From assembly GCA_964600695.1 (NCBI GenBank), contig CAZRKK010000003.1, forward strand, positions 86,914 to 150,913: a stretch of DNA of 64,000 nt. Direction: 5' to 3'. This DNA is from an uncultured Candidatus Saccharibacteria bacterium (lineage in GTDB: Bacteria; Patescibacteriota; Doudnabacteria; UBA920). Positions 12,963 through 57,660 of this stretch are shown here, piece after piece; the stretch's first letter is position 1, and each line of letters begins with the position of its first letter. Below the pieces are notes generated by a model that had not been told where the DNA came from, made no database searches, and saw only the letters and a list, made by a program, of their open reading frames with translations. A program made the position numbers and the translations under genes.

Positions 12963-13124
12963 ATGTTCTTAGACGACGAAATGACCGACGACGCTGCTGT
13001 AATGCCAGCTGCTTCTGACGACACAATGAATGACGACGCTGCAGAAACTTCTCACGAAGACATGCCAGCTACAGAAGAAACTTCTCACGAAGAAGCTCCT
13101 GCTGCTGAAGGCGACGCAATGTAA
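12963..13124 (+). CDS. small highly acidic protein (53 aa) with internal ETSHE(D/E) repeat
   Basis: AGGGAG RBS 7 nt upstream of the ATG; translation MFLDDEMTDDAAVMPAASDDTMNDDAAETSHEDMPATEETSHEEAPAAEGDAM; terminator immediately downstream; below the 60-aa ORF-track cutoff. Confidence 0.4.
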   Translation: MFLDDEMTDDAAVMPAASDDTMNDDAAETSHEDMPATEETSHEEAPAAEGDAM

Positions 13125-13127
13125 AAT

Positions 13128-13160
13128 AAAACCCTCAATTTATTGGGGGTTTTATTTTAT
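13128..13160. terminator. bidirectional terminator between small ORF and tyrS
   Basis: Hairpin ccctcaa-ttta-ttggggg flanked by A-run and T-run. Confidence 0.6.
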
Positions 13161-14547: not shown

Positions 14548-17355
14548 ATGAAATTATATAACTTTTCTTCATCTCCAACTGGGGACAGAAAACCAAAAAA
14601 GTGGTTTTCTAAACAGACTCTAAAAAACTTACCATGGCCAACTATTGGTACATGGTCATTTCGTATCGGTGCAGCAGGTATTTTATTCGTGGCTTTTTTG
14701 TTTATTTATTATAGCCGTCAACTTCCGGACCCAAATAGATTACTTGGTAGAAATGTCCCAGAAAGCACAAAGATTTATGCCAAAGATGATAGTTTAATTT
14801 ACGAAGTCCATGGAGAAATCAAAAGAACTTTAGTTAACTTGGATCAAATTTCTCCTGACCTTAAGAATGCCACCATCTCTGCGGAAGATAAAAACTTTTA
14901 TAAACATTCTGGTGTATCTTTTACAGGACTAGCACGTTCTGCAATTATCGATATTATCTACCGAGAAAAAAGACAAGGTGGAAGCACCATCACTCAACAG
15001 TTTGTAAAGAATGCTGTCTTAACTCGTGATAAATCTTTTATTAGAAAGATTAAAGAAATTATTATTGCAATCGAATTGGAAGCTCGGTTTAGTAAGGATG
15101 ATATTTTCAAACTTTATTTAAATGAAATTCCTTATGGTCGCAATGCTTATGGTATAGAAGCGGCTAGCCAAACTTACTTTAATAAGCATGCTAATGAATT
15201 AACATTGGCTCAAAGCGCTTACTTAGCAGCTTTACCACAAGCACCTTCCTACTATAATCCAAGTGGTCCAAACTTCGACGCTCTTCAAGCTAGACAAAAA
15301 TTCATCTTAAACCAGATGGAAGATTTGGGATACATCAATGCCGAACAAAAAGAAGCTGCTCTTAACGAAGAAGTAAAGTTTGAAACAATTAAAACCGCGA
15401 TAGTTGCACCACATTTCGTTCAGTATGTAGAAAACTACCTTGCAGAAAAATATGGTGAGACCTCTTTGCAAGAAGGTGGCTTAAAAGTTTATACAACCTT
15501 AGATCCCAAGCTTCAACAAATTGCCGAACAAGCTGTGAGTGAAGGTGCTAAGAAGAATTTAGCCGCCAATGGACATAACGCCGCTTTAGTAGCAATTGAC
15601 CCTAAAACAGGGCAAATATTGGCAATGGTGGGCAGTAAAGATTACTTCGGTGAGTCAGAACCTGCAGGGTGTGTTCAAGGTAAAACATGTTTGTTTGAAC
15701 CAAATGTTAACGTTGCAACATCTTTGCAACAACCAGGAAGTAGCTTCAAACCATACGCTTATGTAACCGCCTTTGGTAGAGACTTTAAATATTCTCCAGC
15801 CTCCATGTTAATGGATGTAAAAACTGATTTTGGTGACTACTCTCCTAACAACTTCAATCTTTCTCAAAATGGACCAGTGTCGATGCGAAAAGCCTTAGCG
15901 GGAAGTTTGAATATTCCAGCTGTAAAAACAATTGCTTTGGTTGGTGCGGATAACGTTACAAAAACTGCTAGAGAACTTGGTATAGAAGCTCCGTTCAAAG
16001 ATTGTGGATTAGCTCTTGTACTTGGTGGTTGTGATGTTAAACTGGTTGATCATACTTCTGCTTATGGTGTGTTTGCCAACGGCGGAAAGAAAGTAGAAAA
16101 AACTTCTATTCTAAAAATTGTTAGCCAAGAAGGAGAAGTCTTAGAAGAGTACAAAGAAAAGAGCCAACAAGTTTTAGACCCACAGGCTGTGTATGAATTA
16201 GTTAGCATCATGACAGATAACAATGCTCGGAGTTATGTGTTTGGAGCTAACTCTGCTCTCACGCTAGGTGGTGGTAGACCAGTTGCTGCAAAAACTGGAA
16301 CCACTCAAGATTTTAAAGATGGTTGGACTGTAGGATTTACCCCGTCATTAGTTGCTGGTGTGTGGACAGGAAACAATAATAATACATCTATGAAAAAAGA
16401 TGCGGTACTTACAGCTGGTCCAATCTGGAATCAATTCATGAAGCAAGCCTTAGCAGGTACACCTGTTGAAGAATTTAATAAGCCAGAACAAATTAAAACC
16501 ATCACTGTTGATAGTGTCTCTGGATTACTTCCAACACAACATACTCCAGAAACTAAATCAGAGGTGTTTGCAGATTATGCTGTGCCAACTAAATATGACA
16601 ATGTTCATGTTCCAGTAGAAATTGATACTCTAACTGGCCAACCAGCTACGGAAGACACCCCACCAGAACGTAAGATTACCGAAATCTATACCGTGCTACA
16701 TAGCGAAAAACCTAGTAATGCAGCTTGGGAACAACCTGTAATTGCATGGGCATTAGCTAATGGTTATAAATACCCTCCAGGAAGTGGAATTACCAACCCA
16801 AACCCAGAGGGCACTAGTGATAAAGTTGCATTCCTAACCCCTTCTGGTGGCTCTACAATCACTAAACTCCCTTTTAATGTCAGTCTGGGAGTAGAAGGTC
16901 AACCTAAAAAAATAGATCTTTTGCTAGATGGTGAGACTGTTGAGACACTAACTAATGGTGACCTACAAGCTCAGATTAGTAAAAAACTACCTGATGGTAA
17001 TCACACTCTAACAGCAAAGGTAAGTTACGAGAACGGTAGCTCTGCTAGCACCAGTATTCAAATTAAATACTCACTTACTGAAGGTTTAGTACTTATCAGC
17101 CCTGCTGAAGGTGATGAAATATCCTTTCCTTGGCAACTAGAGGCAGCTAGCTCTACTAATATGCCAGGAGTAAGCTTCTATTATCAATCAGGTAATGTCA
17201 TCAAAACAATTGGTACTGCAGAAGTAGTTAGTACAGCAGGTGGTTATAAATATATTTATACTTGGGACAGCCAACCAAAAAGCGGAACCTATCGACTATT
17301 TGCTAAAAGCAGTAATGGAACAACCTCTACCAAAGTAATCTTCAGTATCAATTAA
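14548..17355 (+). CDS. class A penicillin-binding protein (bifunctional glycosyltransferase/transpeptidase) with long C-terminal extension
   Basis: GT51 motifs EDKNFYKHSG and RQGGSTITQQ; transpeptidase SSFK, SLN and KTGTT; ~300-aa C-terminal beta-rich extension. Confidence 0.9.
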   Translation: MKLYNFSSSPTGDRKPKKWFSKQTLKNLPWPTIGTWSFRIGAAGILFVAFLFIYYSRQLPDPNRLLGRNVPESTKIYAKDDSLIYEVHGEIKRTLVNLDQISPDLKNATISAEDKNFYKHSGVSFTGLARSAIIDIIYREKRQGGSTITQQFVKNAVLTRDKSFIRKIKEIIIAIELEARFSKDDIFKLYLNEIPYGRNAYGIEAASQTYFNKHANELTLAQSAYLAALPQAPSYYNPSGPNFDALQARQKFILNQMEDLGYINAEQKEAALNEEVKFETIKTAIVAPHFVQYVENYLAEKYGETSLQEGGLKVYTTLDPKLQQIAEQAVSEGAKKNLAANGHNAALVAIDPKTGQILAMVGSKDYFGESEPAGCVQGKTCLFEPNVNVATSLQQPGSSFKPYAYVTAFGRDFKYSPASMLMDVKTDFGDYSPNNFNLSQNGPVSMRKALAGSLNIPAVKTIALVGADNVTKTARELGIEAPFKDCGLALVLGGCDVKLVDHTSAYGVFANGGKKVEKTSILKIVSQEGEVLEEYKEKSQQVLDPQAVYELVSIMTDNNARSYVFGANSALTLGGGRPVAAKTGTTQDFKDGWTVGFTPSLVAGVWTGNNNNTSMKKDAVLTAGPIWNQFMKQALAGTPVEEFNKPEQIKTITVDSVSGLLPTQHTPETKSEVFADYAVPTKYDNVHVPVEIDTLTGQPATEDTPPERKITEIYTVLHSEKPSNAAWEQPVIAWALANGYKYPPGSGITNPNPEGTSDKVAFLTPSGGSTITKLPFNVSLGVEGQPKKIDLLLDGETVETLTNGDLQAQISKKLPDGNHTLTAKVSYENGSSASTSIQIKYSLTEGLVLISPAEGDEISFPWQLEAASSTNMPGVSFYYQSGNVIKTIGTAEVVSTAGGYKYIYTWDSQPKSGTYRLFAKSSNGTTSTKVIFSIN

Positions 17356-17378
17356 ATCTGTAAAAGTTTTCTAATAAA

Positions 17379-17486
17379 AAAACAGAGAGTAATATTTTAA
17401 GCGACACTTCTCGCACAGTAACCATTCGCCGGAAGGCGGATAGGTTACGTAGCGATACTGGAGCGTAAATATTACTCTCTGTTTTT
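17379..17486 (+). repeat. Copy A of a conserved structured element: 66-nt core (17400-17465) closed by a perfect 20-bp stem, with T-run
   Basis: Arms aaaaacagagagtaatattt / aaatattactctctgttttt; core agcgacacttctcgcacagtaaccattcgccggaaggcggataggttacgtagcgatactggagcg; lies between convergent PBP and jag genes. Confidence 0.8.
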
Positions 17487-17504
17487 ATTTATAGTAAATA
17501 ACTT

Positions 17505-17975
17505 TTATATATTCATTTGAATACTACGATTAGGTTCTTCACCTGTACTACTTGTAGTAATATGGGGGAATTGTTCTTGAATATAATTATGGACAAACTT
17601 TCTTTCGTGTCTTGGCATTGCCGGTAAAACAATTGGCTCTTTGCTGTATTTCAATTTCGAAACTGCATCTTTAACAGTTTGTTTTAGTTGCCATTGTCGA
17701 TGGGAGCGATATTCATCCACATCAAGAGAGAATCTAACCGGTTGTTCTGAATCTTTCTGATGACGGTTAACGATTGCAAAAACTAAAAGTTCTAAAGCCT
17801 GTAAAGTCATACCTTGTCGGCCGATCAATAATTTTGAATCTCTAGAATTTATGTGGAAAATTAAACCACTAACCAAACTTTGTTCGTACTCTACTCGAAC
17901 ATTAAATCCACCAGAAGACAAAATATCGGTTATTACTTTTTTAATGTATTCGATTGTTTCGTAATCGGTATTCAT
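17505..17975 (-). CDS. khpB: Jag/KhpB-like RNA-binding protein (KH + R3H domains)
   Basis: KH-like LIGRQGMTLQALE and R3H-like MPRHERKFVHNYI; conserved position downstream of yidC. Confidence 0.8.
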   Translation of the reverse strand: MNTDYETIEYIKKVITDILSSGGFNVRVEYEQSLVSGLIFHINSRDSKLLIGRQGMTLQALELLVFAIVNRHQKDSEQPVRFSLDVDEYRSHRQWQLKQTVKDAVSKLKYSKEPIVLPAMPRHERKFVHNYIQEQFPHITTSSTGEEPNRSIQMNI

Positions 17976-17981
17976 AATTTA

Positions 17982-18722
17982 TTATTTTATAACTTCAACA
18001 TCAATAATTGAGGTGGTTGTAGTTGGATGAGTTTTTTGAACATAATATTGCTGACCAACAGCAAATAAGGTTGTTACTATCCAATACAGTGGAAGTCCTG
18101 CTGGTAAAGTCCAAGCGATAACCACGGAAACTACAGGCAAAACATAGGTCATTTGAACATTAAGAGCTTTGGCTGTCATATCTTGCCCGGCTGGCTTACC
18201 AGACCATTTAGTAATCATGCGAGACTGCCAGAACTGCGCTAAACCAGCCAATAGAGCGAAGACTATATTAGGATGAGATAAATCAACTAAATTTAAGAAT
18301 TTAGGATCCAAAACCCCTGGATTATAAACAAAACTATACAAACCTTCTAAATTTCCCTTTAAAGCTTTGCTAAATACTTGATATAACGCAATTAAAATTG
18401 GTAATTGGATTAACACTGGCAAACAAGAAGAAAAAGGATTAACCTTATGTTCTTTATACAAATCCATCATTGCTTTGGCTTGCTCTTCTTTATTATCTTT
18501 GTGGCGCTCTCGCAATTCATTCATTTTAGGCTGGAGGGCACTTAAAGCCTTTTGACCTTTTAAAGACTTATGCATAAAAGGTGCTAAAACTACTCTAATC
18601 GCTAGAGTAACCAAAATAATAACAATTCCAATATCTTGAATTGGAAATACATTATACAAACCTACTAAAAGGTTTAAAATTGGTCTATAAATTGCTTCGT
18701 TGTAAATGTCTAATAAAAACAT
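17982..18722 (-). CDS. yidC: membrane protein insertase YidC (short form)
   Basis: Five-TM core, 246 aa; conserved rnpA-yidD-yidC-jag synteny. Confidence 0.8.
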   Translation of the reverse strand: MFLLDIYNEAIYRPILNLLVGLYNVFPIQDIGIVIILVTLAIRVVLAPFMHKSLKGQKALSALQPKMNELRERHKDNKEEQAKAMMDLYKEHKVNPFSSCLPVLIQLPILIALYQVFSKALKGNLEGLYSFVYNPGVLDPKFLNLVDLSHPNIVFALLAGLAQFWQSRMITKWSGKPAGQDMTAKALNVQMTYVLPVVSVVIAWTLPAGLPLYWIVTTLFAVGQQYYVQKTHPTTTTSIIDVEVIK

Positions 18723-18733
18723 AATCGTATTTT

Positions 18734-18967
18734 TTAAAGGGGTTTATTAATTTTAGGTCTACTGAATGGGTTGCATTTAACAACTCTTACTAATGATAAC
18801 ATTATTCCTTTTATCGTACCGTGTTTTTGTAAAACTTGAATGGAATACTCACTACAACTTGGATAAAATCTACAAAAACCATAAGGATATTTAACTTTTA
18901 ACCAACCATGGTCTGGTGATAAAGTTTTTTGGTAGATTTTTATTAAGTAAATTAAAGGTTTATTCAT
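18734..18967 (-). CDS. yidD: membrane protein insertion efficiency factor YidD
   Basis: CRFYPSCSEY motif. Confidence 0.85.
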   Translation of the reverse strand: MNKPLIYLIKIYQKTLSPDHGWLKVKYPYGFCRFYPSCSEYSIQVLQKHGTIKGIMLSLVRVVKCNPFSRPKINKPL

Positions 18968-18975
18968 AATTAGTA

Positions 18976-19314
18976 TTAAACCATTTTACTTTTTTCTAAA
19001 GCTGTTATGATTTCTTTCCGCAAATTAGCTGAATTTACTGGAACGGCAGTTTTTTTAACAATAAATACATAAGAACCAGGCTTTATTTGGTCTATATATT
19101 CATGAACCACCTGACGAATTATCCGCCTTAGACGGTTTCTAGTAACAGCACTTTTAGAGACTTTTACAGAAGTAATTACAGTAATTTTTGGTTGATCTAA
19201 ACCAGTTTGATTAAGGAATTTGATCAAAAAAGATTGACTAAAAAAACTCCGCCCCTTGGCTGTCGTTAGATTTACATCAGCTGTTTTGGAAAGGCGGTGT
19301 TTTTTAGGAAGCAT
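18976..19314 (-). CDS. rnpA: ribonuclease P protein component
   Basis: RNRLRR-containing basic protein of 112 aa; its reading frame is open upstream into the rpmH C-terminal frame. Confidence 0.85.
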   Translation of the reverse strand: MLPKKHRLSKTADVNLTTAKGRSFFSQSFLIKFLNQTGLDQPKITVITSVKVSKSAVTRNRLRRIIRQVVHEYIDQIKPGSYVFIVKKTAVPVNSANLRKEIITALEKSKMV

Positions 19315-19320
19315 GTATTT

Positions 19321-19453
19321 AAACTGTTAATTTCTTTCGTCCCTTTAGGCGGCGACGGGCTAGAACAGCTTTACCAGTACGGGTTAGCATTCTCTTTAGA
19401 AAGCCGTGTACTTGCTTACGTTTTTTTACTTTGGGATTATAAGTTGGTTGCAT
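19321..19453 (-). CDS. rpmH: 50S ribosomal protein L34 coding region, apparently frameshifted in a GGGG run
   Basis: From ATG at 19453 the frame reads [24 protein letters not shown], then hits a stop after the GGGG run at 19380-19383. The +1 frame continues (P)[20 protein letters not shown] (canonical L34 C-terminus) and runs without a stop into rnpA. Confidence 0.6.
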
Positions 19454-19523
19454 ACTAACAATTATATTGAAAAAAATCGGTTTGGTCAACCTTAAATATC
19501 TGGTCTTTTAAAGAACACACAGG

Positions 19524-19600
19524 TTTTCCACAGGTTTTACACACTCCATAACAAACTTGGCTTGTTTAAAGGCTTTTTACTTGTGGTTTACATGTTGATA
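19524..19600. promoter_or_regulatory. DnaA-box cluster upstream of dnaA (oriC part 1 / dnaA promoter region)
   Basis: TTTTCCACA (19524-32), TTTTACACA (19535-43), TGTGGTTTA, TTGATAACT are near-matches to TTATCCACA. Confidence 0.5.
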
Positions 19601-19623
19601 ACTCCACTGGTAGAATAAAAAAT

Positions 19624-20982
19624 ATGAATAACCAACAGCTCTGGCAGGCCATGTTAGGCAGCCTAGAAATCACTTTAAGCAAAGGAAATTTTAACACTTG
19701 GTTTAAAAACACAGGAATTATCGAGAAAGGTGAGGATTATATTATAGTCGGAGTGCCAAGTAACTTCACTTTAGACTGGATAAAAAATAAGTTTCATACT
19801 CTATTGTTAAAATCTCTAAAATCTCTATCTCCTGAGATAAAAGAAATTCGTTATTTTGTTGGAAACCTAAAAACCGAAGCAGAAAAACAAGGCACGCTTT
19901 TACAAAGAACAGAAAGCAACAGCAAGAACACTGTAGTTTACAAAGAATCATCCTTTAACCAAACCGGGAGTTTAAATAAAACATATACTTTCGAAACATT
20001 TATTGTAGGAAAGAATAATGAGCTAGCTCATGCAGCTAGTCAAGGAGTTTCTAAAAATCCTGGCACTCAATATAATCCATTATTTATTTATGGTGGTGTT
20101 GGATTGGGAAAAACTCATTTAATGCATGCTGTGGGAAACAAACTAATCGCTAATAACCCCCGCATGAGAGTTTTATACGCAACTAGTGAAAAGTTTACCA
20201 GTGATTATATAGATGCCCTTCGTCAAAAGAAAATGGACGATTTTAAAAAACGTTATAGGCAAGTTGATATGTTGCTCATTGATGATATTCAATTCATCGC
20301 TGGTAAAGAACAAACTCAGGAGGAATTTTTTCATACTTTTAACGAATTAAGAGATAAAGGTAAACAAATTATTCTTACTGCAGATCGTTTACCAAAGGAT
20401 ATTCCTGCAATTGAACAAAGATTAGTTTCTAGATTCGAATGGGGGATGGTCGCAGATGTTGGAGCACCAAGTTTAGAAACCAGAATAGCGATTCTAAAAA
20501 CTAAATTAGCTAAGTCTGGGATTAATTTAGATAACGATATTGTTCAATACGTAGCAGAAAATGTAGTTAATAACATCCGTGAGTTAGAAGGAGCGATGAA
20601 CAAAATTATTGTTTATCAGCAGATAGAAAGTAATCCAATCACGTTAAACGAAGTTAAGGAATTATTGGTTAGCATAGTAAATGCTAAGAAAAAGACCGTT
20701 TCTGTTAGGAAAATTGCCGAATGTGTAGCTAGTTTTTACAGCATTACAATGGAAGATTTGATAAAACAATCACGACGTAAAGAATATGTTAAACCTAGAC
20801 AAGCAGCTATGTACTTAACAAGAAAAGAACTAGGTAGTTCATTTCCTTCAATTGGTGAATTCTTCGGTGGTAGAGACCATACAACTGTGATGCATGGAGT
20901 AGAAAAAGTAGAGAAAGCAGTTAATGCCCAAGATCAAATTAAACAAGAATTAGATTTGATCTTAGAAAAAATTTACAACTAA
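19624..20982 (+). CDS. dnaA: chromosomal replication initiator protein DnaA
   Basis: AAA+ Walker A GVGLGKTHL, C-terminal DNA-binding domain. Confidence 0.95.
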   Translation: MNNQQLWQAMLGSLEITLSKGNFNTWFKNTGIIEKGEDYIIVGVPSNFTLDWIKNKFHTLLLKSLKSLSPEIKEIRYFVGNLKTEAEKQGTLLQRTESNSKNTVVYKESSFNQTGSLNKTYTFETFIVGKNNELAHAASQGVSKNPGTQYNPLFIYGGVGLGKTHLMHAVGNKLIANNPRMRVLYATSEKFTSDYIDALRQKKMDDFKKRYRQVDMLLIDDIQFIAGKEQTQEEFFHTFNELRDKGKQIILTADRLPKDIPAIEQRLVSRFEWGMVADVGAPSLETRIAILKTKLAKSGINLDNDIVQYVAENVVNNIRELEGAMNKIIVYQQIESNPITLNEVKELLVSIVNAKKKTVSVRKIAECVASFYSITMEDLIKQSRRKEYVKPRQAAMYLTRKELGSSFPSIGEFFGGRDHTTVMHGVEKVEKAVNAQDQIKQELDLILEKIYN

Positions 20983-21214
20983 AAGGTGTTGTAATGAGTG
21001 GATAGAGTTGTTAATAAGTGTGTGTAGGTTGTGTATAAATTCCCGATAAAAACAAGATAAAGAATTTATTAAAAAGTTATCAAATTTAGTTCACAAAAAT
21101 ATAAAGAAGTTATAAACAACTAATTTGGAATAATAAGTAATGTTTAATTCAGATTAAAGTGTTTATCCACTAATCCACCGACTCTATTACAACTACTAAT
21201 TAATTATATAAAGA
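20983..21214. promoter_or_regulatory. candidate oriC (AT-rich dnaA-dnaN spacer with DnaA boxes)
   Basis: Very AT-rich 232 bp; TTATCCAC at 21163-21170 (8/9 to consensus), TTATCAAAT, AGTTCACAA. Confidence 0.5.
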
Positions 21215-22336
21215 ATGAAGATAATAAGTACACAGGAAAACTTAAAGAACGGATTACAAATCGTTAGCCGAGTAGTTGGTAATAGTTCGACATTGCCAAT
21301 TCTAAATAATGTAATGTTAGAAACTGATAATGGTTTACTAAAAATTTCTGGTACTAATCTAGAAACTGGAATCAGTACTTATATCCGATGCGCGATTGAA
21401 GAAGAAGGTGGAATTTGCGTTGGTGTAAAAACAATCACTGATTTAATTAATAGTTTTCCTTCCGAAAATATCACAATCGAAACTGGTGAGTTAGAAACCT
21501 CAATTACTACAGATAACAGTAATGTAAAAATCAAACACCTTTCAACAGAAGATTTCCCATTAATCCCTAAAATTGAAGATTCAGGTGTAGTAAAGATTAA
21601 TGCCTCTGATTTAAAAATCGCTTTGGATCAAGTTATTTTTGCTTCTAGTACCAGTGAAACTCAGCCAGAGATTTCTGGGATATTATTCTGGTTTGGGGGT
21701 GAGAATGTATTAATTACTGCCACAGACCGTTATCGTTTGGCAGAAAAGAAGGTTTCGTACAAAGGTGATGTTTCTTCACTTGGAAACAGTGAAAATGGGC
21801 AAAAGATTATTATTCCTCACCGAAGCAGTATAGAAATCTCCCGCTTACTTACTGGTTTAACCGGCGAAATAGAATTAAACATTACTTCTACTCAATTAGC
21901 CTTTAATCTTGAAAATACCTATATTGTGACTAGATTAATTGATGGAACATATCCTGATTATCAACAAATTATCCCAGACTCTAGTAATACAACCATAATA
22001 TTTGATAAAAATGATCTAGTTTCGGCATTAAAAACCAGTAGTGTATTTTCTCGAGGATCTGGTAGTATTACTGTAAATTATGATTCTGAGCAGAATTCAA
22101 TGCAGTTAAATTCCGTTTCGCACGATCTAGGTGAAAGCAAAGTGGATGTAGTCTGTAGAATTTCCGGCCCATCTGGTTCTTTGGTAGTAAATTATCGATA
22201 TTTATCTGATTTCTTAAACAATTTAAATACTGATACACTGGTTATGAAGATTATTGATGAAAATGAACCTATTACTTTTGTTCCAGAAAATGACAACTCC
22301 TACCTTTATCTTGTAATGCCTATTAAGCAACAATAA
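21215..22336 (+). CDS. dnaN: DNA polymerase III beta sliding clamp
   Basis: 373 aa, three-domain clamp architecture; conserved dnaA-dnaN-recF order. Confidence 0.9.
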   Translation: MKIISTQENLKNGLQIVSRVVGNSSTLPILNNVMLETDNGLLKISGTNLETGISTYIRCAIEEEGGICVGVKTITDLINSFPSENITIETGELETSITTDNSNVKIKHLSTEDFPLIPKIEDSGVVKINASDLKIALDQVIFASSTSETQPEISGILFWFGGENVLITATDRYRLAEKKVSYKGDVSSLGNSENGQKIIIPHRSSIEISRLLTGLTGEIELNITSTQLAFNLENTYIVTRLIDGTYPDYQQIIPDSSNTTIIFDKNDLVSALKTSSVFSRGSGSITVNYDSEQNSMQLNSVSHDLGESKVDVVCRISGPSGSLVVNYRYLSDFLNNLNTDTLVMKIIDENEPITFVPENDNSYLYLVMPIKQQ

Positions 22337-22359
22337 TTTATTAGCCTAGAAAGACTATT

Positions 22360-23454
22360 ATGCAAATCAAAAAGATTAACTTAAAGAACTTCCGTAATTA
22401 TCCAGACTTAGATTTAGATATTACCCACGAGATGGTAATTTTATCCGGTCCTAATGCAGTAGGTAAGACTAACTTATTAGAATCCATATATTTTGGTTCT
22501 TTATTTAAATCTTTTCGTGATGATGCAGATTTTATCTTCTTAAAATCAACCAATGATTCAAAAATTAAAATCGATTTCGAATCAAGTAGTGGAGAAGCTA
22601 ATGAATTAGAAATATTTTTAGAAAAGCGGGATCGAATATTTGCAAACTTTAAAATCAATGGAGTAAAAAAGAAACGTAAACAAGCCCAAGGATTTTTAAA
22701 AGTTGTAATTTTTGAACCTAGTGATGTTGATTTATTTACTAAACCACCAGAAGCTCGACGTAAATATTTTAATATGGTGTTATCCCAAAAACATCCTGAG
22801 TATCTAGAATTGCTAGGAAGTTATAAAAAGGCGATGACTCAAAAGAATCGCTTTCTACAAGACTTAAAACAAGGTAATGGGGATGTTTCTGCACTAGATA
22901 GTTGGAATGAGCAAATTGCAAACATTGGTTCGGAAATTATTTGGTTTAGAAAACAGTTTGTAAATTTCCTTAATCAAAATTTGTCCGAAGTATACACCAA
23001 TATTTCTAAATTTCAGAGAACAGTTGAACTTGTTTATGAAAGTATTGCTGGAGAAACTAAAGAAGAAATTTACAATAACTTTTTACAACAATTAGATAAG
23101 GTTCGTCCTAGAGAATTAGGTGCCGCTACCTGCCTCGTAGGGCCTCATAGAGACGACTTTTTCCTTCAGAGTGAGGGATTGTTCCTGGTCTCATTCTCGT
23201 CCCGTGGTGAGCAACGTAGTCAGATTTTAGCACTAAAGATTTTAGAATTAGAATACTTAACTAAAGAAGGTGAGTCCCCGATATTATTGTTGGACGACGT
23301 ACTTAGCGAGTTAGATGATACCCGTCGAACATTCTTATTAAAATATCTTCAAGGTAAATTCCAAACCTTTATTACCACTACTCATCCATTAGAAATGGTG
23401 GGTCAACATGTAACTTTAAGCCCTGCAGTTGTAGAAGAAGAAGTTACTGAATAG
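22360..23454 (+). CDS. recF: DNA replication/repair protein RecF
   Basis: N-terminal Walker A LSGPNAVGKTNLLE, C-terminal LLLDDVLSELD. Confidence 0.9.
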   Translation: MQIKKINLKNFRNYPDLDLDITHEMVILSGPNAVGKTNLLESIYFGSLFKSFRDDADFIFLKSTNDSKIKIDFESSSGEANELEIFLEKRDRIFANFKINGVKKKRKQAQGFLKVVIFEPSDVDLFTKPPEARRKYFNMVLSQKHPEYLELLGSYKKAMTQKNRFLQDLKQGNGDVSALDSWNEQIANIGSEIIWFRKQFVNFLNQNLSEVYTNISKFQRTVELVYESIAGETKEEIYNNFLQQLDKVRPRELGAATCLVGPHRDDFFLQSEGLFLVSFSSRGEQRSQILALKILELEYLTKEGESPILLLDDVLSELDDTRRTFLLKYLQGKFQTFITTTHPLEMVGQHVTLSPAVVEEEVTE

Positions 23455-23469
23455 CTATAATACTAATAT

Positions 23470-23578
23470 AAAACTAAAAGGTATTACTTTCGCTCCAATA
23501 TCGCTACGTAACCTATCCGCCTTCCGGCGAATGGTTACTGTGCGAGAAGTGTCGCTTAAAGTAATACCTTTTAGTTTT
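23470..23578 (-). repeat. Copy B of the conserved structured element (inverted relative to copy A): 66-nt core (23491-23556) closed by a perfect 21-bp stem
   Basis: Arms aaaactaaaaggtattacttt / aaagtaataccttttagtttt; core is the reverse complement of copy A core (65/66 identical); lies between convergent recF and nucleotidyltransferase genes. Confidence 0.8.
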
Positions 23579-23592
23579 TATTATAATAGGAT

Positions 23593-24660
23593 CTATAAAA
23601 ACTTATTTAACTTAGGGGAGGATTTAAGCTTTTCTATAAGGTGCTTTAACTCTTCACTTTTATTTTTATCAGCCACTAATACTGCTTCTGGTGTGACTAC
23701 AATAATTAGATTGTCTACATGTAAAGTACTAACTATTTGTTTAGGGTTGTAATTGTAAATTAAACTACCAGTAGTTTTATGAGAAATTGTTAATCCTTCA
23801 GTTAGGTTGTCATTTAGTTCTGATTGAATATCTTTGATTACACTCCAACGACCTACATCAGCCCAATCAAATTTTCCTGGTGTGACTAAAATTTCTTTTG
23901 GATTCTTAATAAGAATTTCTTCAAAATCAAATGACGGCATCTTGGAGTAATATTTTTTAATCACTTGAGTTTGATTTTTAGTACCAATAGCTGGTTTAAT
24001 TACCATGAGCAATTTATAAGCTTCTGGTTGGTATTGTTTATATAAATCCAATATATGATTAGCAGAAGAAATAAAATATCCGGAATTGATCAAATACTTT
24101 CCTGATTTAAAATATTTTTCTGCGAGTTTGTCTGTTGGTTTATCAGTAAATTGTTTTACAGAATATACAGTTTTAGATATTGCTTTACCTGTATTTAAAT
24201 ATCGAAATGCTTTACTTGGAGAAGTAGGTTTTATTCCAACTGCTACAATCGTGTTAGGATTTTCTTTTAAAAACTTCTCTGCATTTTTTAAAGTCTGATG
24301 ATAAATATCATCTTGTTTAATATGATCATCAGACCAAGCAGTAGCAAAAATATCGTCATTACTTTGAGATTGCATAATTAAAGCCGCTAAACCTAATGCA
24401 GGGCCACGATCTTTTCTCATAGGCTCTAGTGAAAGATGAGATTTTTTTATTTGGGGAAGTTGTTGTTGAATTTGCTCCGCGTAATCACTTGCGGTGGCTA
24501 TAAAAATTTGCGCAGGGTTAAAACCTTTGCGCATTCTTTTGTATGTTTGTTGTAAAAGAGTGTCTTTTCCAACTAGCTTTAGTAGTTGTTTGGGTTGAGA
24601 TTTACGGCTAGCTGGCCAGAGTCTTGTGCCTTGGCCACCAGCAAAGATTAATACATTCAT
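23593..24660 (-). CDS. mannose-1-phosphate guanylyltransferase-like nucleotidyltransferase
   Basis: N-terminus MNVLIFAGGQGTRLWPASRKSQPKQL is typical of the ManC/CpsB NTP-transferase domain. Confidence 0.7.
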   Translation of the reverse strand: MNVLIFAGGQGTRLWPASRKSQPKQLLKLVGKDTLLQQTYKRMRKGFNPAQIFIATASDYAEQIQQQLPQIKKSHLSLEPMRKDRGPALGLAALIMQSQSNDDIFATAWSDDHIKQDDIYHQTLKNAEKFLKENPNTIVAVGIKPTSPSKAFRYLNTGKAISKTVYSVKQFTDKPTDKLAEKYFKSGKYLINSGYFISSANHILDLYKQYQPEAYKLLMVIKPAIGTKNQTQVIKKYYSKMPSFDFEEILIKNPKEILVTPGKFDWADVGRWSVIKDIQSELNDNLTEGLTISHKTTGSLIYNYNPKQIVSTLHVDNLIIVVTPEAVLVADKNKSEELKHLIEKLKSSPKLNKFL

Positions 24661-31744: not shown

Positions 31745-31784
31745 ACTGATCTAAAAAACCTCTCCATTTAATTGGGGAGGTTTT

Positions 31785-33122
31785 TTATTTATTGCAGGTG
31801 TATTTATAAAAATGAGTAGAGATTTTTTGTAAACAGTGCCAAGGGTTAGTTTGTTGATCTGGGTAAAAAATCGTTGATCGCTCGTACAGGTAAAGCGGTT
31901 GAGGAAAAGAGTTTAAGAAAGATTCGTTCTTAGGGCTAACCCAAAAGTTTTGCCAGACGGGTTTGCTAAATTTATCTTCAAAAAGCCCAGCTGATGCTAA
32001 TCTTACATTACCCCCAAGATTGGCCAAAAGCCATGTCGCATCTTGAGCGCTCAAACTTAAAACAAAAGCACCTTGATGATTATCGGAAAAATCTCTTATC
32101 TCAGTAATTTCTGTTTCTGAGATTTGAGGCTTTAAATCATTTTTAGAAAATTGAACTAATCCTAATAAAGCCAAAGCTATAACTAAAATACCTATAATTG
32201 TTTGTTGTTTGGTTTTTTCTTTAAGCTCATAAATGGTAATAACATTAAAGAATATTAAGGCTAGGTCTGCATAAGCAAGTAGTCTTTGATAAAAAGTTAT
32301 TTGGAATACAATAAATATTAAACTTACACCAAGTAATCCTAACCATGGTAAGTTGGTCTTTGTCTTAAAACTTAAGTACACTCCATAACTAGCCATCGGG
32401 ATTAAATACCAGGAGTATTTTAAATAGTTAGTAACATTTAAAAATAATCCGTTCTGAACATCTGAATTTAAAAGTTGTTTGATGTAATCTCCAGCGCCGA
32501 GGAAAAAAATAAATATTAATCCGGCTACACCAAGCCCACCAATTATTAATACCTTCTGTTTTAGATTGCTAAATAAATAATAGGGGATGAGTGATAGTAG
32601 CGTGATAATTGTTGTAGTCTTGTGGCTAATAAATAATACAACCAAGGGGAGTAGTTCCCAAAAATATTTTTTATGATGTTGAATTAACAAAAAAATTAGG
32701 AGTAATAAAACTTGACCATATGCAGCTTTCCATAAAAACATAGTGAAGGTTTGATTTTGAGCAATTGATAAACAAAATAAACTTACTCCGACCAACACGG
32801 CGACTGTTCCATATTTTTTTATTTGTTCGTAAAACAAAATTCCCGCAATGACAAAAAATGAAATGAATAAAAAGTTTAAAGTTGGTAGTTGGGGTAGTCT
32901 TATCCAATTAATAAATACAAATAAATGATTTCCATAATCATTTACCCGGCCCAGAAGGTAAGCAATTGAATTTAATGGTGTGTGTTGAATAGCATAGGAA
33001 TAAAAACCATAATCATAACCGTAATTATTAAAACCTAAGGGGTGAGTTAAAAACATCACCGCAACAATAAAGATTGCGATGAGGATATATATAGATATGG
33101 AAGTTAAGATATGTTTCTTCAT
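31785..33122 (-). CDS. polytopic integral membrane protein (possible glycosyltransferase-like), hypothetical
   Basis: 445 aa with 10 or more predicted TM segments. Confidence 0.4.
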   Translation of the reverse strand: MKKHILTSISIYILIAIFIVAVMFLTHPLGFNNYGYDYGFYSYAIQHTPLNSIAYLLGRVNDYGNHLFVFINWIRLPQLPTLNFLFISFFVIAGILFYEQIKKYGTVAVLVGVSLFCLSIAQNQTFTMFLWKAAYGQVLLLLIFLLIQHHKKYFWELLPLVVLFISHKTTTIITLLSLIPYYLFSNLKQKVLIIGGLGVAGLIFIFFLGAGDYIKQLLNSDVQNGLFLNVTNYLKYSWYLIPMASYGVYLSFKTKTNLPWLGLLGVSLIFIVFQITFYQRLLAYADLALIFFNVITIYELKEKTKQQTIIGILVIALALLGLVQFSKNDLKPQISETEITEIRDFSDNHQGAFVLSLSAQDATWLLANLGGNVRLASAGLFEDKFSKPVWQNFWVSPKNESFLNSFPQPLYLYERSTIFYPDQQTNPWHCLQKISTHFYKYTCNK

Positions 33123-36132: not shown

Positions 36133-37137
36133 ATGAAACTAGAAGATAAAAATACCGGAGAAATAATAATTTACAAAGAATCTACAGGCCCTGTTGTAGA
36201 AGTTAGTTTTGTAAATGAATCAGTATGGCTAAATCAGCAACAAATTGCACAATTATTTGGAACCCAGCGGTCAGCAATTACTAAACATTTAAACAATATC
36301 TTTAAATCCTCAGAATTAAGCCAGAATTCAGTATGTTCCATTTTGGAACACACTGCCACCGATGGAAAAAAGTATAAAACTAAGTTTTATAATCTAGACG
36401 CTATTGTATCTGTTGGTTATCGTGTAAATTCAATTAGGGCTACTAACTTTAGAATTTGGGCCACAAACACCCTTAATGATTATCTACTCAAAGGTTATGC
36501 AATTAACAAAGATCGGCTCAATGATCAGAATTTAGCAAAAGTTAAAGAGTTGCAATCTGCTGTGCAGCTTATTCAAACAGCCATTCGAGACAAAAAGCTT
36601 GAAGGTTACGAGAAAGAAGTATTAAATATCATCACTGACTATACGAATACTTGGACTGCATTGTATCAATATGATAAAGATAGTTTGCAACCAGAGTCGA
36701 CCACAAAGAAAATTGTTTCTGCTTTGGATTACGACAAGATCAAAAAATCTGTAGAACGTTTTAGAGATAGATTGGTAAAAGATAAGCAAGCCAGTAGTTT
36801 ATTTGGTAAGGAAGTTGGTGATAAATTAAAAGGATTGTTGGGAAATATAGAACAGTCTTTTTCTGGAAAGCAGTTATATAATTCTTTAGAAGAAAAAGCA
36901 GCTCATCTTTTATACTTTGCAATTAAAGATCATCCTTTTGCAGATGGCAATAAACGTATTGGATCGCTGATGTTTATTCTATATCTAGTAGAAAACAATC
37001 GTATTTATAATAAACGTGGAGAAAAAATTATTAACGATACTGCACTCACTGCTTTAGCTTTATTAATTGCAGAAAGTAAACCAAATCAAAAAGAAGTAAT
37101 GGTTAATCTGGTGGCTAGTTTAATAGTTAAGAATTAA
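36133..37137 (+). CDS. RhuM-family / Fic-Doc domain protein
   Basis: N-terminus ESVWLNQQQIAQLFGTQRSAITKHLNNIF...FYNLDAIVSVGYRVNS is RhuM-like; Fic motif HPFADGNKRIGS (HxFx[DE]GNKR). Confidence 0.7.
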   Translation: MKLEDKNTGEIIIYKESTGPVVEVSFVNESVWLNQQQIAQLFGTQRSAITKHLNNIFKSSELSQNSVCSILEHTATDGKKYKTKFYNLDAIVSVGYRVNSIRATNFRIWATNTLNDYLLKGYAINKDRLNDQNLAKVKELQSAVQLIQTAIRDKKLEGYEKEVLNIITDYTNTWTALYQYDKDSLQPESTTKKIVSALDYDKIKKSVERFRDRLVKDKQASSLFGKEVGDKLKGLLGNIEQSFSGKQLYNSLEEKAAHLLYFAIKDHPFADGNKRIGSLMFILYLVENNRIYNKRGEKIINDTALTALALLIAESKPNQKEVMVNLVASLIVKN

Positions 37138-53606: not shown

Positions 53607-53654
53607 TCATTTTTACCGAAATTGTTAAGTATTTTTCAATATTCTCGTGTTATT

Positions 53655-53763
53655 AGAAATCTAGAAGTTTTATCAAACGAAACCATATGAGCCCAAATCC
53701 CCATCTGCGAAGCAGATTAGGGGATTGTTGCGAATTGGTTGAGGTGGTAAACTTCTAGATTTC
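53655..53763. repeat. perfect 15-bp inverted repeat (gaaatctagaagttt / aaacttctagatttc) enclosing an internal 13-bp hairpin
   Basis: Arms at 53656-53670 and 53749-53763; internal aatccccatctgc-gaa-gcagat(ta)ggggatt at ~53692-53726. Confidence 0.5.
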
Positions 53764-53794
53764 ATGATAATCCAGAGAAAATCTTGAAAAATAC

Positions 53795-53822
53795 TTGACA
53801 AGATTTTCTTGACAGTTATAAT
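53795..53822 (+). promoter_or_regulatory. consensus sigma-70 promoter (TTGACA-N16-TATAAT) for rpoBC
   Basis: Perfect -35 and -10 hexamers; gives a ~290-nt leader before the rpoB ATG. Confidence 0.6.
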
Positions 53823-54120: not shown

Positions 54121-57100
54121 ATGCCTACCGAGAATAAACCAAAAACCTCTGGCAAGAAGGTCTCCAAAGCCATTGGTAGCGTAGTTGTGCCTGGTCAAAC
54201 TGCCAATCCGCGTAAGTTTTTTAGCAAGCGCCACGACGCTGTCAAAATGCCGAACCTAATTGAGGTTCAGCTGAATTCATACAAATGGTTCTTTGAGCAC
54301 GGTCTTAAAGAATTATTAGCTGAAATCAACCCAATTCATGATTTCACTAGCAAGAACTTAGAACTTTATTTTGGAGATTACTTCTTCGATAAACCTAAGT
54401 ATGACGAAATCACTGCCCGAGAAAGAAACACCACCTACGAAGCTCCTCTATATGTAAGCGCTAAGTTGGTTAACAAGGTTACAGGTAAGACTAAAACCCA
54501 AGATGTATATTTTGGTGATTTTCCATTGATGACTCCTCGTGGAACATTAGTAATCAATGGAGTAGAACGTGTAGTTGTATCTCAGTTGATTAAGTCACCT
54601 GGGGTTTTCTTCACAACTGAGTATGCAAAAGGTAAAGATTTATACGGCGCAAAGATTGTTCCTAACCGCGGTGCTTGGTTAGAGCTCGACACAGATACTT
54701 CTGGAGTAATCGGAGTAAAGATCGACCGTAAGCGTCGTATCCCTGTTACTGCTTTACTACGTATTTTTGGATTAAAGACTAATGAACAAATTCTAGAGGC
54801 CTTCAAAGATGTCGATACTAATCCAGAAGTTAAATACATCCAAAATACTTTAGACAAAGATGCTTCTACTAATGCTGATGAAGGTTATAAAGAAGTTTAC
54901 AAACGTATTCGTCCTGGAGATTTAGCAACAGTTGATAACGCTCGCTCTTTAATTGATGCGATGTTCTTTAACTTTGATCGTTATGATATTTCCGAAGTTG
55001 GACGTTACAAATTTAATCAACGTTTGGAATTCCCAGAAGACCATGACTCTCGCATTTTGAGTCAAGAAGATATGGTTGCTGTAGTCAAAGAAATTATCAA
55101 ACTAAACAACACTGGCGCTCCTGCAGATGATATTGATCACTTAGCTAACCGTCGTATTCGTGCAGTTGGTGAACTTATTCAAACTCGTTACCGTGTAGGT
55201 TTGGCTCGTATGGCTCGTATTAGTAAAGATCGTATGTCTTTGGCTGATCTAGAAACTGTCACACCAGCTCAACTTATTCACGTTCGTCCAATTGTGGCTG
55301 CTACTCAAGAGTTCTTCTCTTCTTCTCAATTATCACAGTTCATGGACCAAACCAACCCGTTGGCAGAACTCGAACACAAACGTCGTTTATCCGCGATGGG
55401 TCCTGGTGGGCTTTCTCGTGAACGCGCTGGTTTCGAAGTTCGTGACGTACACCGTTCTCATTACGGTCGTCTATGTCCGATTACCACTCCTGAAGGTCCA
55501 AACATTGGACTTGTTGCTCACTTAGCAACTTATGCTCGTATTAATGATTTTGGTTTTATTGAAACTCCATATCAGCTTGTTAAGCGTTTCGCTAAAAATG
55601 ACGGTAAGGATGCAGTAGGTGAATTCGCTCTATATGATATAAAAGATGGTGATTCTGTTGTGGTTTCTGCTGGTACAAAAATGACCGAAGCAGATGCGAA
55701 GAAACTTCAGAAAATTCAAGATTTAGACAAGGTTCAAGTTAAGAGTCGTCTTACCAAAGACACTAAGTTTATGGATGCTTATGAAGAAGAAAAACTTACC
55801 ATTGGAACTGCTAACTTAGAAGTTGATGAAAATGGTTACTTTACCGAAGAACGTGCTTCGGTTCGTGTTCACGGTACTCCAACAATTACTGATATTGATC
55901 AAATCGATTGTATTGATATTTCTCCAAAGCAAATTATTTCTGTAACAACATCATTGATTCCTTTCTTGGAACACGATGATGCTAACCGTGCTTTGATGGG
56001 ATCAAACATGCAACGTCAAGCTGTATCTTGTATCGTACCTCGCGCTCCAATTGTGGGAACTGGTATGGAAGCAAAAGCAGCTCGTGATTCTGGACAGGTT
56101 ATTTTAGCCGAAGAAAATGGAACTGTAACCTCTGTAGGTAGTGGAAAGATCGTTATGAAAGGCGAGTCTGGAAAAACTTACGAATACACTTTACTTAAAT
56201 TCGTTCGTACAAACAGTGGAACATCTTTGAACCAGGTTGCTCGTGTCGATAAAGGCATGAAAGTAAAAGCTGGTGATGTTCTTGCTGATGGTACTTCTAC
56301 TCAACATGGCGAATTAGCCCTAGGTCAAAACGTACTTGTTGCGTTCATGTCTTGGGAAGGTGGTAACTATGAAGATGCGATTTTACTATCTAGCCGTTTA
56401 GTACAAGATGACTACTATACTTCTGTTCATATTGAAGATTTCAAAATTGATGTGCGTGATACCAAGCTTGGACCAGAAGTTGTAACTCGTGATATTCCAA
56501 ATGTTGGTGATGAAAAACTTAAGAACCTAGATGACGAAGGCATTATCCGTGTTGGTGCTCAAGTTAAAGCCGGCGATATCTTAGTTGGAAAAATTACTCC
56601 AAAAGGTGAAACCGATCTTACTGCAGAAGAAAAACTATTACGGGTTATCTTTGGTGAAAAGTCTCGTGATGTAAAAGACACTTCTCTTAATTTGCCTCAT
56701 GGCGAATACGGTAAAGTTGTAAACATTCGTGAATTCTCTCGTGAAGCTGGTGATAAACTTCAAAGCGGTGTAATTCGATCTATTCAAGTATCTATTGCTG
56801 TACTTCGTAAAATTCAAGTTGGAGATAAAATGGCTGGACGTCACGGTAATAAAGGTGTTATCTCTCGTATCATTCCTGTAGAAGACATGCCTTACATGGC
56901 TGACGGTACATCTGTAGATGTAATCTTAAACCCATTAGGTATTGTATCTCGTATGAACTTAGGACAGGTTTTGGAAACCCACTTAGGTTTTGCAGCAAGC
57001 AAACTTGGTTATAAAGTTGCGACTCCGGTATTGGATGGATTAACCGAAGACCAAATTAAAGATGAATTAGAAAAAGCTGGTGTACCTCGTACAGGAAAAG

Positions 57101-57660
57101 TTGATCTTTATGACGGAAAAACTGGTGATAAGTTTGATGAACCTGTAACTGTTGGTGTGAAGTACATGTTGAAGCTTCATCACTTAGTAGACGACAAGAT
57201 GCACGCACGTTCTACTGGACCATACTCCTTAATTACACAACAGCCTTTGGGTGGTAAAGCTCAAATGGGTGGACAGCGTTTTGGAGAAATGGAAGTATGG
57301 GCGCTAGAAGGTTATGGTGCCGCTCATACTCTACAAGAAATGTTGACTATCAAATCAGATGACGTTGTAGGTCGAAGTAAGACTTACGAATCGATTGTAA
57401 AAGGTGAACCAATCAAAAAGCCTAACGTTCCAGAATCATTCCGTGTATTAGTTAAAGAATTACAAAGCTTAGGTCTAGATGTGGAATTGCTAGGCGAAAG
57501 TGGTGCGGTAATGAGTGCTACGGCTGAACCCGACGTAGATCCGGATAATCCTCAAGATCCAAGTGTAGATAGTCAGACCCCTGTAGGAGTCGTACAGAGT
57601 GGTCCTTCGTTGTTTGACGAACCAGCTAAGCCTGCAAAGGCCAAGAAGAAAAAGGAATAA
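54121..57660 (+). CDS. rpoB: DNA-directed RNA polymerase subunit beta
   Basis: 1179 aa; conserved blocks throughout (e.g. rifampicin-cluster region, catalytic NADFDGD partner regions). Confidence 0.95.
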   Translation: MPTENKPKTSGKKVSKAIGSVVVPGQTANPRKFFSKRHDAVKMPNLIEVQLNSYKWFFEHGLKELLAEINPIHDFTSKNLELYFGDYFFDKPKYDEITARERNTTYEAPLYVSAKLVNKVTGKTKTQDVYFGDFPLMTPRGTLVINGVERVVVSQLIKSPGVFFTTEYAKGKDLYGAKIVPNRGAWLELDTDTSGVIGVKIDRKRRIPVTALLRIFGLKTNEQILEAFKDVDTNPEVKYIQNTLDKDASTNADEGYKEVYKRIRPGDLATVDNARSLIDAMFFNFDRYDISEVGRYKFNQRLEFPEDHDSRILSQEDMVAVVKEIIKLNNTGAPADDIDHLANRRIRAVGELIQTRYRVGLARMARISKDRMSLADLETVTPAQLIHVRPIVAATQEFFSSSQLSQFMDQTNPLAELEHKRRLSAMGPGGLSRERAGFEVRDVHRSHYGRLCPITTPEGPNIGLVAHLATYARINDFGFIETPYQLVKRFAKNDGKDAVGEFALYDIKDGDSVVVSAGTKMTEADAKKLQKIQDLDKVQVKSRLTKDTKFMDAYEEEKLTIGTANLEVDENGYFTEERASVRVHGTPTITDIDQIDCIDISPKQIISVTTSLIPFLEHDDANRALMGSNMQRQAVSCIVPRAPIVGTGMEAKAARDSGQVILAEENGTVTSVGSGKIVMKGESGKTYEYTLLKFVRTNSGTSLNQVARVDKGMKVKAGDVLADGTSTQHGELALGQNVLVAFMSWEGGNYEDAILLSSRLVQDDYYTSVHIEDFKIDVRDTKLGPEVVTRDIPNVGDEKLKNLDDEGIIRVGAQVKAGDILVGKITPKGETDLTAEEKLLRVIFGEKSRDVKDTSLNLPHGEYGKVVNIREFSREAGDKLQSGVIRSIQVSIAVLRKIQVGDKMAGRHGNKGVISRIIPVEDMPYMADGTSVDVILNPLGIVSRMNLGQVLETHLGFAASKLGYKVATPVLDGLTEDQIKDELEKAGVPRTGKVDLYDGKTGDKFDEPVTVGVKYMLKLHHLVDDKMHARSTGPYSLITQQPLGGKAQMGGQRFGEMEVWALEGYGAAHTLQEMLTIKSDDVVGRSKTYESIVKGEPIKKPNVPESFRVLVKELQSLGLDVELLGESGAVMSATAEPDVDPDNPQDPSVDSQTPVGVVQSGPSLFDEPAKPAKAKKKKE

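Follow-up and report, generated by a model that had tools for sequence, protein, structure and literature searches.

Template switching during replication leaves recognizable footprints in DNA, namely spacer inversion, arm homogenisation and reverse-complement copying (PMC8794818), and a second report names the same footprints (PMC8604942). Mobile DNA also enters palindromes, and insertion sequences (IS) that specifically target palindromic REP (repetitive extragenic palindromic) elements have been documented (PMC1525189). Here, we analyzed a repeat pair in a 64,000-nt stretch of DNA from an uncultured Candidatus Saccharibacteria bacterium (GTDB Doudnabacteria, UBA920; assembly GCA_964600695.1, contig CAZRKK010000003.1, positions 86,914 to 150,913), which we refer to as the window. 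A 66-nt core occurs there in two inverted copies, A and B, on either side of the dnaA gene cluster, and each copy is enclosed by the stem of what appears to be a transcription terminator. This is a two-copy, single-species feature, a young lineage-specific insertion without demonstrated function, and we found no report of small repeats of this kind in the literature on the candidate phyla radiation (CPR).

The original prediction described an inverted 66-nt repeat with one mismatch, closed by different perfect stems of 20 and 21 bp and strongly structured, and both the sequence and a repeat search bear this out. The core (AGCGAC...GGAGCG) occupies 17400-17465 on the plus strand in copy A, and its reverse complement forms copy B at 23491-23556 (minus strand). 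Within the core the copies differ only at position 59 (17458 in A), which is C in A and T in B. By blastn, the block common to both is 70 nt long and consists of TTTA and the core, after which copy A continues with TAA and copy B with AAA; the 73-nt unit of copy B shared with A (TTTA, core and AAA) lies at 23488-23560 on the minus strand. The repeat search of the window returned the pair as 112-nt arms (17377-17488 and 23468-23579) with 86% complementarity, and a 31-nt sub-pattern of the core occurs twice in the window against zero occurrences expected from 100 shuffles. The closing stem of copy A pairs 17378-17397 with 17467-17486 in a perfect 20-bp helix, and that of copy B is a perfect 21-bp inverted repeat made of the recF-side arm at 23470-23490 (AAAACTAAAAGGTATTACTTT) and the manC-side arm at 23558-23578. 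Complete elements fold far beyond their shuffles, at -55.6 and -57.7 kcal/mol (z = -10.7 and -10.0), and the core alone reaches -29.7 kcal/mol on the sense strand (z -5.5) versus -24.1 kcal/mol on the antisense strand. The predicted fold is a single long irregular rod stacked on the outer stem, so that structured loops of 69 nt (A) and 67 nt (B) lie inside the outer stems. The rod contains small internal loops including tandem G.A, a 13-bp GUAACC.../...GGUUAC helix with one bulged A, and an apical GGAA tetraloop consistent with GNRA. Beyond its matching ends TTTA/TAAA, the insert is an imperfect palindrome of about 60%.

Relatives of the window allowed us to see one of the two sites without the core. 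Searching for exact matches to the Jag protein of the window yielded nine contigs, and in eight of these the spacer between the PBP1A-type gene and jag is 70-71 nt long, versus 149 nt in the window. The sister spacer at A is a plain terminator, AAAACAGAGAGTAA-TAT/ATA-TTACTCTCTGTTTT, with a 14-bp stem, a 3-nt loop and a folding energy of about -17 kcal/mol. In the alignment of window and sister, the outer stem is the same and 76 extra nucleotides lie inside the terminator loop; relative to the sister allele, the comparison shows copy A as an apparent insertion into a pre-existing terminator. The A-run and the 5' arm of the host terminator are at 17376-17392 (plus strand; CAGAGAGTAA is 17383-17392) and are also found in the insert-free sister species. 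They are followed by TAT at 17393-17395, the old 3-nt terminator loop, which is now base-paired. The 76 extra nucleotides, as defined by intergenic length and alignment, can be placed at 17396-17471 (one among several equivalent placements) and read TTTA, core, TAA and ATA, the terminal ATA being the reverse complement of the old loop. The 3' arm of the host terminator (TTACTCTCTG) and its T-run follow at 17472-17486, according to the alignment and the inverted-repeat search. At least eight sister contigs with an identical Jag or YidD protein have this core-free copy-A stem, with A/T-runs flanking the same CAGAGAGTAA/TTACTCTCTG arms. The sister loop itself comes in two forms on identical stems, TAT in L002, L007, L039 and L041 and its reverse complement ATA in L003-L006, L008, L010 and L043; this difference amounts to an inverted spacer, such as has been ascribed to template switching within a hairpin.

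The closing stems are, as far as their sequences tell, the host terminators themselves. An A-run and a T-run flank both stems on opposite sides, and both copies qualify as intrinsic terminators on both strands. The other bidirectional intrinsic terminators of the window (e.g., 13122-13159, 31752-31787 and 2163-2192) have the same layout of A-run and T-run; they are near-perfect palindromes with short stems and loops of 0-4 nt, whereas A and B enclose structured loops. The proposal that A and B are terminators therefore holds as a sequence-level assignment, given hairpins with A- and T-runs between convergent genes and a sister allele that is a canonical terminator. The further proposal, that conserved cores closed by different yet self-complementary stems indicate covariation and thus selection, fails on the core-free copy-A stem of the sister contigs. 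The stems differ and are nevertheless self-complementary because the core sits in two different terminators. The outer stems do not provide homologous positions for a covariation test, and only three SNPs (single-nucleotide polymorphisms) occur in the core among all copies, with no double compensatory change. A self-folding insert placed in two unrelated terminator loops, together with stems perfected by mutation, is enough to produce a covariation-like signal. Apparent covariation of this type can hence arise without selection on RNA structure, which calls for caution in motif discovery from few copies.

The distribution of the core is narrow. The empty-site contigs have 93% nucleotide identity with the window over rpmH-jag and 86% over manC, and so represent a sister species and not strains of the same population. 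Among the conspecific contigs (97-99% identity), all that reach site A are occupied (L009, L020-22, L040, L044, L045 and L047), and site B is occupied in every one that reaches it (at least 12). Copy B is thus fixed in the species. It is invariant among these contigs (at least 12), the flanking genes of which differ by up to 3%; SNP-free stretches of about that length are also found in neighbouring coding DNA. More distant relatives have different arrangements: the recF-manC spacer of L015 (84% identity) is 19 nt long with no hairpin, and L013 (80% identity) has unrelated plain terminators at both sites. A sister metagenome-assembled genome (MAG; L039, GCA_964418025.1, contig CAYQJW010000005.1) is empty at site A and has a 100-N scaffold gap (1751-1850) exactly at site B. 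That the assembly breaks here may point to a repeat, or to a hairpin that is difficult to sequence, at the sister site B too; recF was not called near the gap, and none of the other sister contigs has manC. The empty state is accordingly observed for site A only. By parsimony, we infer from these sequences that copy A was inserted after the split from the sister species. As a separate observation, conspecific SNPs are strongly clustered at 23316-23427 and 23620-23692 (e.g., nine SNPs in a 31-nt part of recF and nine in a 73-nt part of manC), and the DNA separating the clusters is invariant over long distances, which suggests within-species recombination mosaics.

The copy number was deduced from the break points of Logan contigs, which are assembled on 31-mers, together with the 64-kb window. 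All contigs coming from the manC side break off at position 26 of the core, having covered 30 nt (k-1) of the shared unit that starts with TTTA, and those coming from the recF or jag side begin at position 29, where the first 31-mer containing the A/B SNP at 59 starts; two contigs of 6,101 nt correspond exactly to the segment between both cores. In a second class of contigs (L023-25 and L027), the sequence coming from recF crosses the entire core and reaches position -3. Such a run is possible only if A and B share a single 31-mer (-4 to 27), which predicts an additional SNP at position 28 in one of the copies, and this SNP was found afterwards: the copy-A contig of that sublineage, L047, carries C28T. 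A third copy, which we had suspected from the contigs starting at -3, was rejected on the basis of the L047 SNP, and no third copy with 31 or more shared nucleotides is compatible with the unbroken traversals of the core in those samples. Exactly two copies explain the break pattern fully. With filters off, a covariance model trained on both copies and the L047 variant recovered A and B alone from the window, and a further 91 kb of other loci, mainly of relatives, gave no match.

Wider searches gave no further copy. The 108-nt element had no blastn match among PLSDB plasmids or INPHARED phages. In IMG/VR, an exact pattern search found no occurrence of the central 22-mer and four chance matches of the 5' and 3' 17-mers without further similarity. 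A 20-mer search of GTDB representative genomes gave one chance match in a GC-rich Acidobacteriaceae MAG, and a 22-mer search of JGI metagenomes gave none; a DnaN-anchored search of the latter found no relatives, and the lineage is apparently not in that collection. Translations of the three open frames of the core, searched against 5.8 billion proteins for spurious open reading frames (ORFs) that would mark copies, matched nothing. The suggestion of a genome-wide repeat family is therefore not supported, since the break pattern corresponds to two copies, the covariance model finds only A and B, and no collection searched has the core. Nor does the expected conservation across related genomes hold, as the core is absent at the readable sites of relatives at 93%, 84% and 80% identity. 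Taken together, the feature is shown to be restricted to one lineage. The comparison with Rfam that the original prediction had suggested matched no family to the core: at the gathering score of Rfam 15 the window matches only tRNAs, and at E <= 10 the region 17300-17560 gives only spurious miRNA, lncRNA and sRNA matches of at most 27 bits, versus cut-offs of 50-211.

The junctions of the two copies are alike. On the plus strand, copy A reads S-TAT-(TTTA-core-TAA)-ATA-S', where S and S' are CAGAGAGTAA and TTACTCTCTG, and the sister reads S-TAT-S' or S-ATA-S'. The comparison shows the loop triplet at A as duplicated in inverted, not direct, orientation; read this way, the loop has been converted into five more base pairs (TATTT/AAATA). 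Copy B has the layout X-TAC-(TTTA-core-AAA)-GTA-X'. There is no direct target-site duplication, the flanks being inverted in both copies (TAT...ATA in A and TAC...GTA in B). A reading with a duplicated TA is open to both copies and predicts an empty site of 22 nt, versus the 23 nt observed at A. The stem tips beside the core match between A and B at 9 of 11 and at 7 of 10 positions, and the breakpoints can be placed in microhomologies of 2-4 nt (TT, GTAA and TTTA). If loop insertion also produced copy B, the empty site B would have read ...GGTAT-TAC-ATACC..., a plain hairpin AAAACTAAAAGGTAT-TAC-ATACCTTTTAGTTTT.

We therefore favor the following course of events, and estimate a probability of about 0.5 that all of its parts hold jointly: the core is an insert in pre-existing terminators, has two copies, is lineage-specific, and was copied from B to A by template switching. 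A GC-rich, non-coding and self-complementary insert of 73-76 nt would lie in the loops of two bidirectional terminators, those of PBP1A/jag and manC/recF, and copy A would be a reverse-complement copy templated from B during replication. Microhomology of the two AT-rich hairpin tips (GTAATATTT for A, GTATTACTTT for B) may have guided the switch. Either in this event or in a quasi-palindrome correction shortly afterwards, the old 3-nt loop would have been copied in inverted form, and this inverted copying would turn the loop into stem and yield the perfect 20-bp helix. The rod with its GGAA cap would stack on the terminator stem and leave the A-run and the T-run untouched, so that the insert could be tolerated. 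Since the A- and T-runs and the basal stem are intact and the rod is predicted to stack on the stem, both hairpins probably still terminate the convergent transcripts.

In this account the terminator insert, the two copies and the lineage specificity are the well-supported part, and the direction and the mechanism are what we infer. Two copies only, their 6-kb spacing, their inverted orientation and the lack of a direct duplication or, among the scanned window ORFs, of a transposase favor templated copying, and the reverse-complement donor, the perfected arms and the TAT/ATA spacer inversion in the sister favor template switching from B to A. Judged by the usual marks of template switching, site A has a reverse-complement donor, microhomologies of 2-4 nt and a loop made double-stranded; however, the donor is 6 kb away, one T:A pair is unaccounted for and the direction is deduced. 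Several points weigh against the account. An empty site B was never observed, so that insertion into a terminator is directly visible at A alone, and the scaffold gap of the sister MAG falls exactly at the position of copy B. For the polarity at site A, the parsimony argument has just one sister lineage to draw on; as a possible alternative, the insert could be ancestral and the sister could have lost it by deletion at the GTAA or TT microhomologies. Relative to B, copy A has an additional T:A at the junction that a simple model with two switches would not produce. Template-switch events in the literature are usually short-range, and 6 kb across an origin is unusual. Finally, the account offers no source for the core sequence itself.

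The strongest competitor, which we nevertheless regard as unlikely, is a non-autonomous element similar to a MITE (miniature inverted-repeat transposable element) or an IS200/IS605-PATE-like element, mobilised by a transposase elsewhere and targeting the single-stranded loops of terminator hairpins. The insert is small, non-coding and imperfectly palindromic with the short inverted ends TTTA...TAAA, the sister lineages differ in whether it is present at site A, TA can be read on either side of both copies, and the REP-targeting IS provide a precedent for this type of target (PMC1525189). A and B also face the same way with respect to forks moving out from the dnaA region, as expected for single-stranded DNA (ssDNA) transposition, the antisense core being on the inferred lagging-strand template in both; with n = 2, this agreement has a 50% probability by chance. 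However, the copies number just two and lie 6 kb apart, the duplication of the loop triplet is inverted with no direct target-site duplication, and a duplicated TA would imply an empty site shorter by 1 nt than the one observed. A Pfam scan of 50 window ORFs (all of at least 90 aa except rpoB/rpoC and overlapping spurious frames) revealed no transposase, recombinase, RAYT (REP-associated tyrosine transposase) or TnpB, and accordingly no PF01797-type or other transposase domain that would point to REP/RAYT or IS200/IS605 membership. No related element was found in the phages, plasmids, IMG/VR, GTDB representative genomes or JGI metagenomes searched, either. Should a parent IS exist, the element ends to be compared with it are TTTAAGCGAC.../...GGAGCGTAAA. 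A more adventurous version, to which we give little credence, would make the insert a miniature mobile element of a new kind that integrates as ssDNA into terminator loops, duplicates the loop in inverted form and is hidden as a coaxial stem extension, or else a reverse-complement copy passed between sister forks after initiation, giving origin-symmetric inverted duplicates.

Selection at the RNA level would account for other aspects of the pair. The core could be a functional module in the 3' untranslated regions (UTRs) of the PBP1A and manC mRNAs, either protein-binding or stabilising (e.g., for Jag/KhpB) or giving rise to a 3'-derived small RNA, and we consider this improbable. In both copies the sense strand, which folds better than the antisense strand by the energies given above, is the strand transcribed from the upstream convergent gene (PBP1A and manC-like), and both of these are envelope genes. 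All three SNPs among the copies keep the sense fold, with 59 and 66 unpaired and C28T changing C-G to U.G (an A.C mismatch on the antisense strand), and copy B is invariant next to diverging flanking genes. These are weak, sequence-derived hints of an RNA-level role. Three structure-neutral SNPs would occur by chance about once in 10 by our estimate, and invariant stretches of similar length occur in neighbouring coding DNA. The core is absent from the sister and from distant relatives that have the same genes, and is thus not needed for the expression of those genes; besides the lack of an Rfam family, no diverged homologues were found for a covariation analysis within the core. A 3'-UTR RNA function is accordingly conjectural. 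The least probable explanation, in our judgement a very remote one, ties the copies to the origin as DNA sites, with inverted 70-bp repeats that flip the 6-kb oriC-dnaA segment or with sites that bind a protein or direct forks. Exactly two inverted copies bracket rnpA-rpmH|dnaA-dnaN-recF, their midpoint (20478) falls inside dnaA, and 70 bp of identity is probably enough for RecA-dependent inversion. On the other hand, copy A is absent from the sister, which leaves no room for a conserved origin function, no invertase or recombinase was found among the scanned ORFs in or near the segment, and the core shows no resemblance to parS and only a 6/9 match to a DnaA box. The ancestral gene order is kept in the window and in GCA_044227685.1, the two assemblies spanning A and B together, and also in the sister and the outgroup, although short-read graphs cannot tell inversion isomers apart.

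A number of specific identities were also considered for the core and rejected. Domain IV of the signal recognition particle RNA, suggested by the GGAA loop, gave no Rfam signal, and a K-turn does not fit because the tandem G.A pairs are not adjacent to a 3-nt bulge. A parS site or DnaA box was dismissed on the comparisons just given. A small ORF was rejected (frame 1 is open, with a start codon in neither copy), as was a small RNA with its own promoter, the -10-like TAATAT being present upstream of A only.

Pfam gene calls confirmed the gene context that had been described, i.e., inverted copies between convergent gene pairs that bracket the dnaA cluster. The order is PBP1A (rightward), A, jag-yidC-yidD-rnpA-rpmH (leftward), dnaA-dnaN-recF (rightward), B and manC-like (leftward). 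The PBP1A-type gene, with transglycosylase and transpeptidase domains (14548-17355, plus strand; PF00912 and PF00905), converges toward A with jag/khpB (KH and R3H domains; 17505-17975, minus strand), the last gene of the rpmH-rnpA-yidD-yidC-jag operon. Toward B, recF (22360-23454, plus strand; PF02463) converges with the manC-like nucleotidyltransferase gene (23593-24660, minus strand; PF00483 and PF22640), whose homologues are named mannose-1-phosphate guanylyltransferase or sugar phosphate nucleotidyltransferase and come from Patescibacteria, including several Candidatus Doudnabacteria. The origin region assigned by Pfam and GC skew (19454-21214) comprises the rpmH|dnaA intergenic region, dnaA (19624-20982) and the dnaA-dnaN intergenic region. 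The minimum of the cumulative GC skew lies at about 14-18 kb, just left of this region, which places A and B on opposite sides of the presumed origin. The YidC of the window is short (246 aa); a short YidC together with the presence of Jag is usual for the Doudnabacteria/Patescibacteria group.

Several further observations concern the neighbourhood of the copies and the remainder of the window. The last 600 nt of the PBP1A gene (16748-17348) differ from the sister at 31-37 positions per 200 nt, about twice the value of some 20 per 200 nt seen elsewhere in the gene. Window and sister (L003/L039) have Jag proteins with 100% identity despite differences at about 45-50 of the 471 jag nucleotides (an estimate from SNP counts per 200 nt), and the Jag proteins of the conspecific MAG GCA_044227685.1 and of L022 are not identical to that of the window. 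As read from the sequences, this pattern suggests unusually strong purifying selection or a mosaic history. The sole mobile-element- or toxin-flavoured gene found in the window is an ORF with RhuM and Fic/DOC domains (36133-37137, plus strand), which adjoins polA and a NUDIX gene. A near-perfect rod hairpin of about 190 nt with a GC-richer apex (53618-53806, plus strand; AAUCCCCAUCUGCGAAGCAGAUUAGGGGAUU; -80.1 kcal/mol, z = -11) lies in the 545-nt spacer upstream of a putative rpoB, a 1179-aa ORF at 54121-57660. This hairpin matches no Rfam family and does not resemble the 66-nt core; it may represent a leader structure or a further palindromic insert of the nested type. The repeat search also revealed a tandem 33-nt direct repeat with 79% identity (13043-13108, plus strand), located immediately downstream of the region of the tyrS-like gene.

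The pair is a documented case of a lineage-specific palindromic insert nested in a loop, in a genome of the Patescibacteria (CPR), and the inverted loop duplication at its junction is unlike the footprint of classical transposition. Should more cases be found, templated hairpin-to-hairpin copying, or a loop-targeting mobile element, would be a source of new 3'-UTR structure. Compared with bacterial MITEs such as the Correia elements of Neisseria and RUP of Streptococcus pneumoniae, the insert is similar in being short, non-coding, intergenic and hairpin-forming, in lying near gene 3' ends where it can be co-transcribed, and in varying among lineages. It differs in having two copies, terminal inverted repeats of at most 4 nt, no direct target-site duplication and no cognate IS found, and its 73-76 nt are near or below the small end of the MITE size range. 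With the REP/BIME/REPIN elements and their RAYT (Y1) transposases (PMC1525189, PMC3333891), it shares a GC-rich imperfect palindrome in an extragenic position after convergent genes, and insertion into a palindrome or hairpin has its precedent in the REP-targeting IS (PMC1525189). REPs, however, occur in tens to hundreds of copies and are linked to RAYT, and no RAYT or TnpA was found in the window; moreover, the palindrome hit here is a host terminator, and the inserted piece is itself a GC-rich palindrome. There is also a likeness to Ripley-type quasi-palindrome mutations produced by template switching (Monttinen & Loytynoja 2022, PMC8794818; PMC8604942), with which the locus has in common a reverse-complement copy, arms perfected in one step, the inverted 3-nt spacer of the sister (TAT/ATA) and junctions in TT, GTAA and TTTA microhomologies. 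In contrast to those mutations, donor and recipient are here not the arms of one quasi-palindrome but separate hairpins 6 kb apart on opposite replichores, and a 70-nt block would have been moved where the usual size is a few bases.

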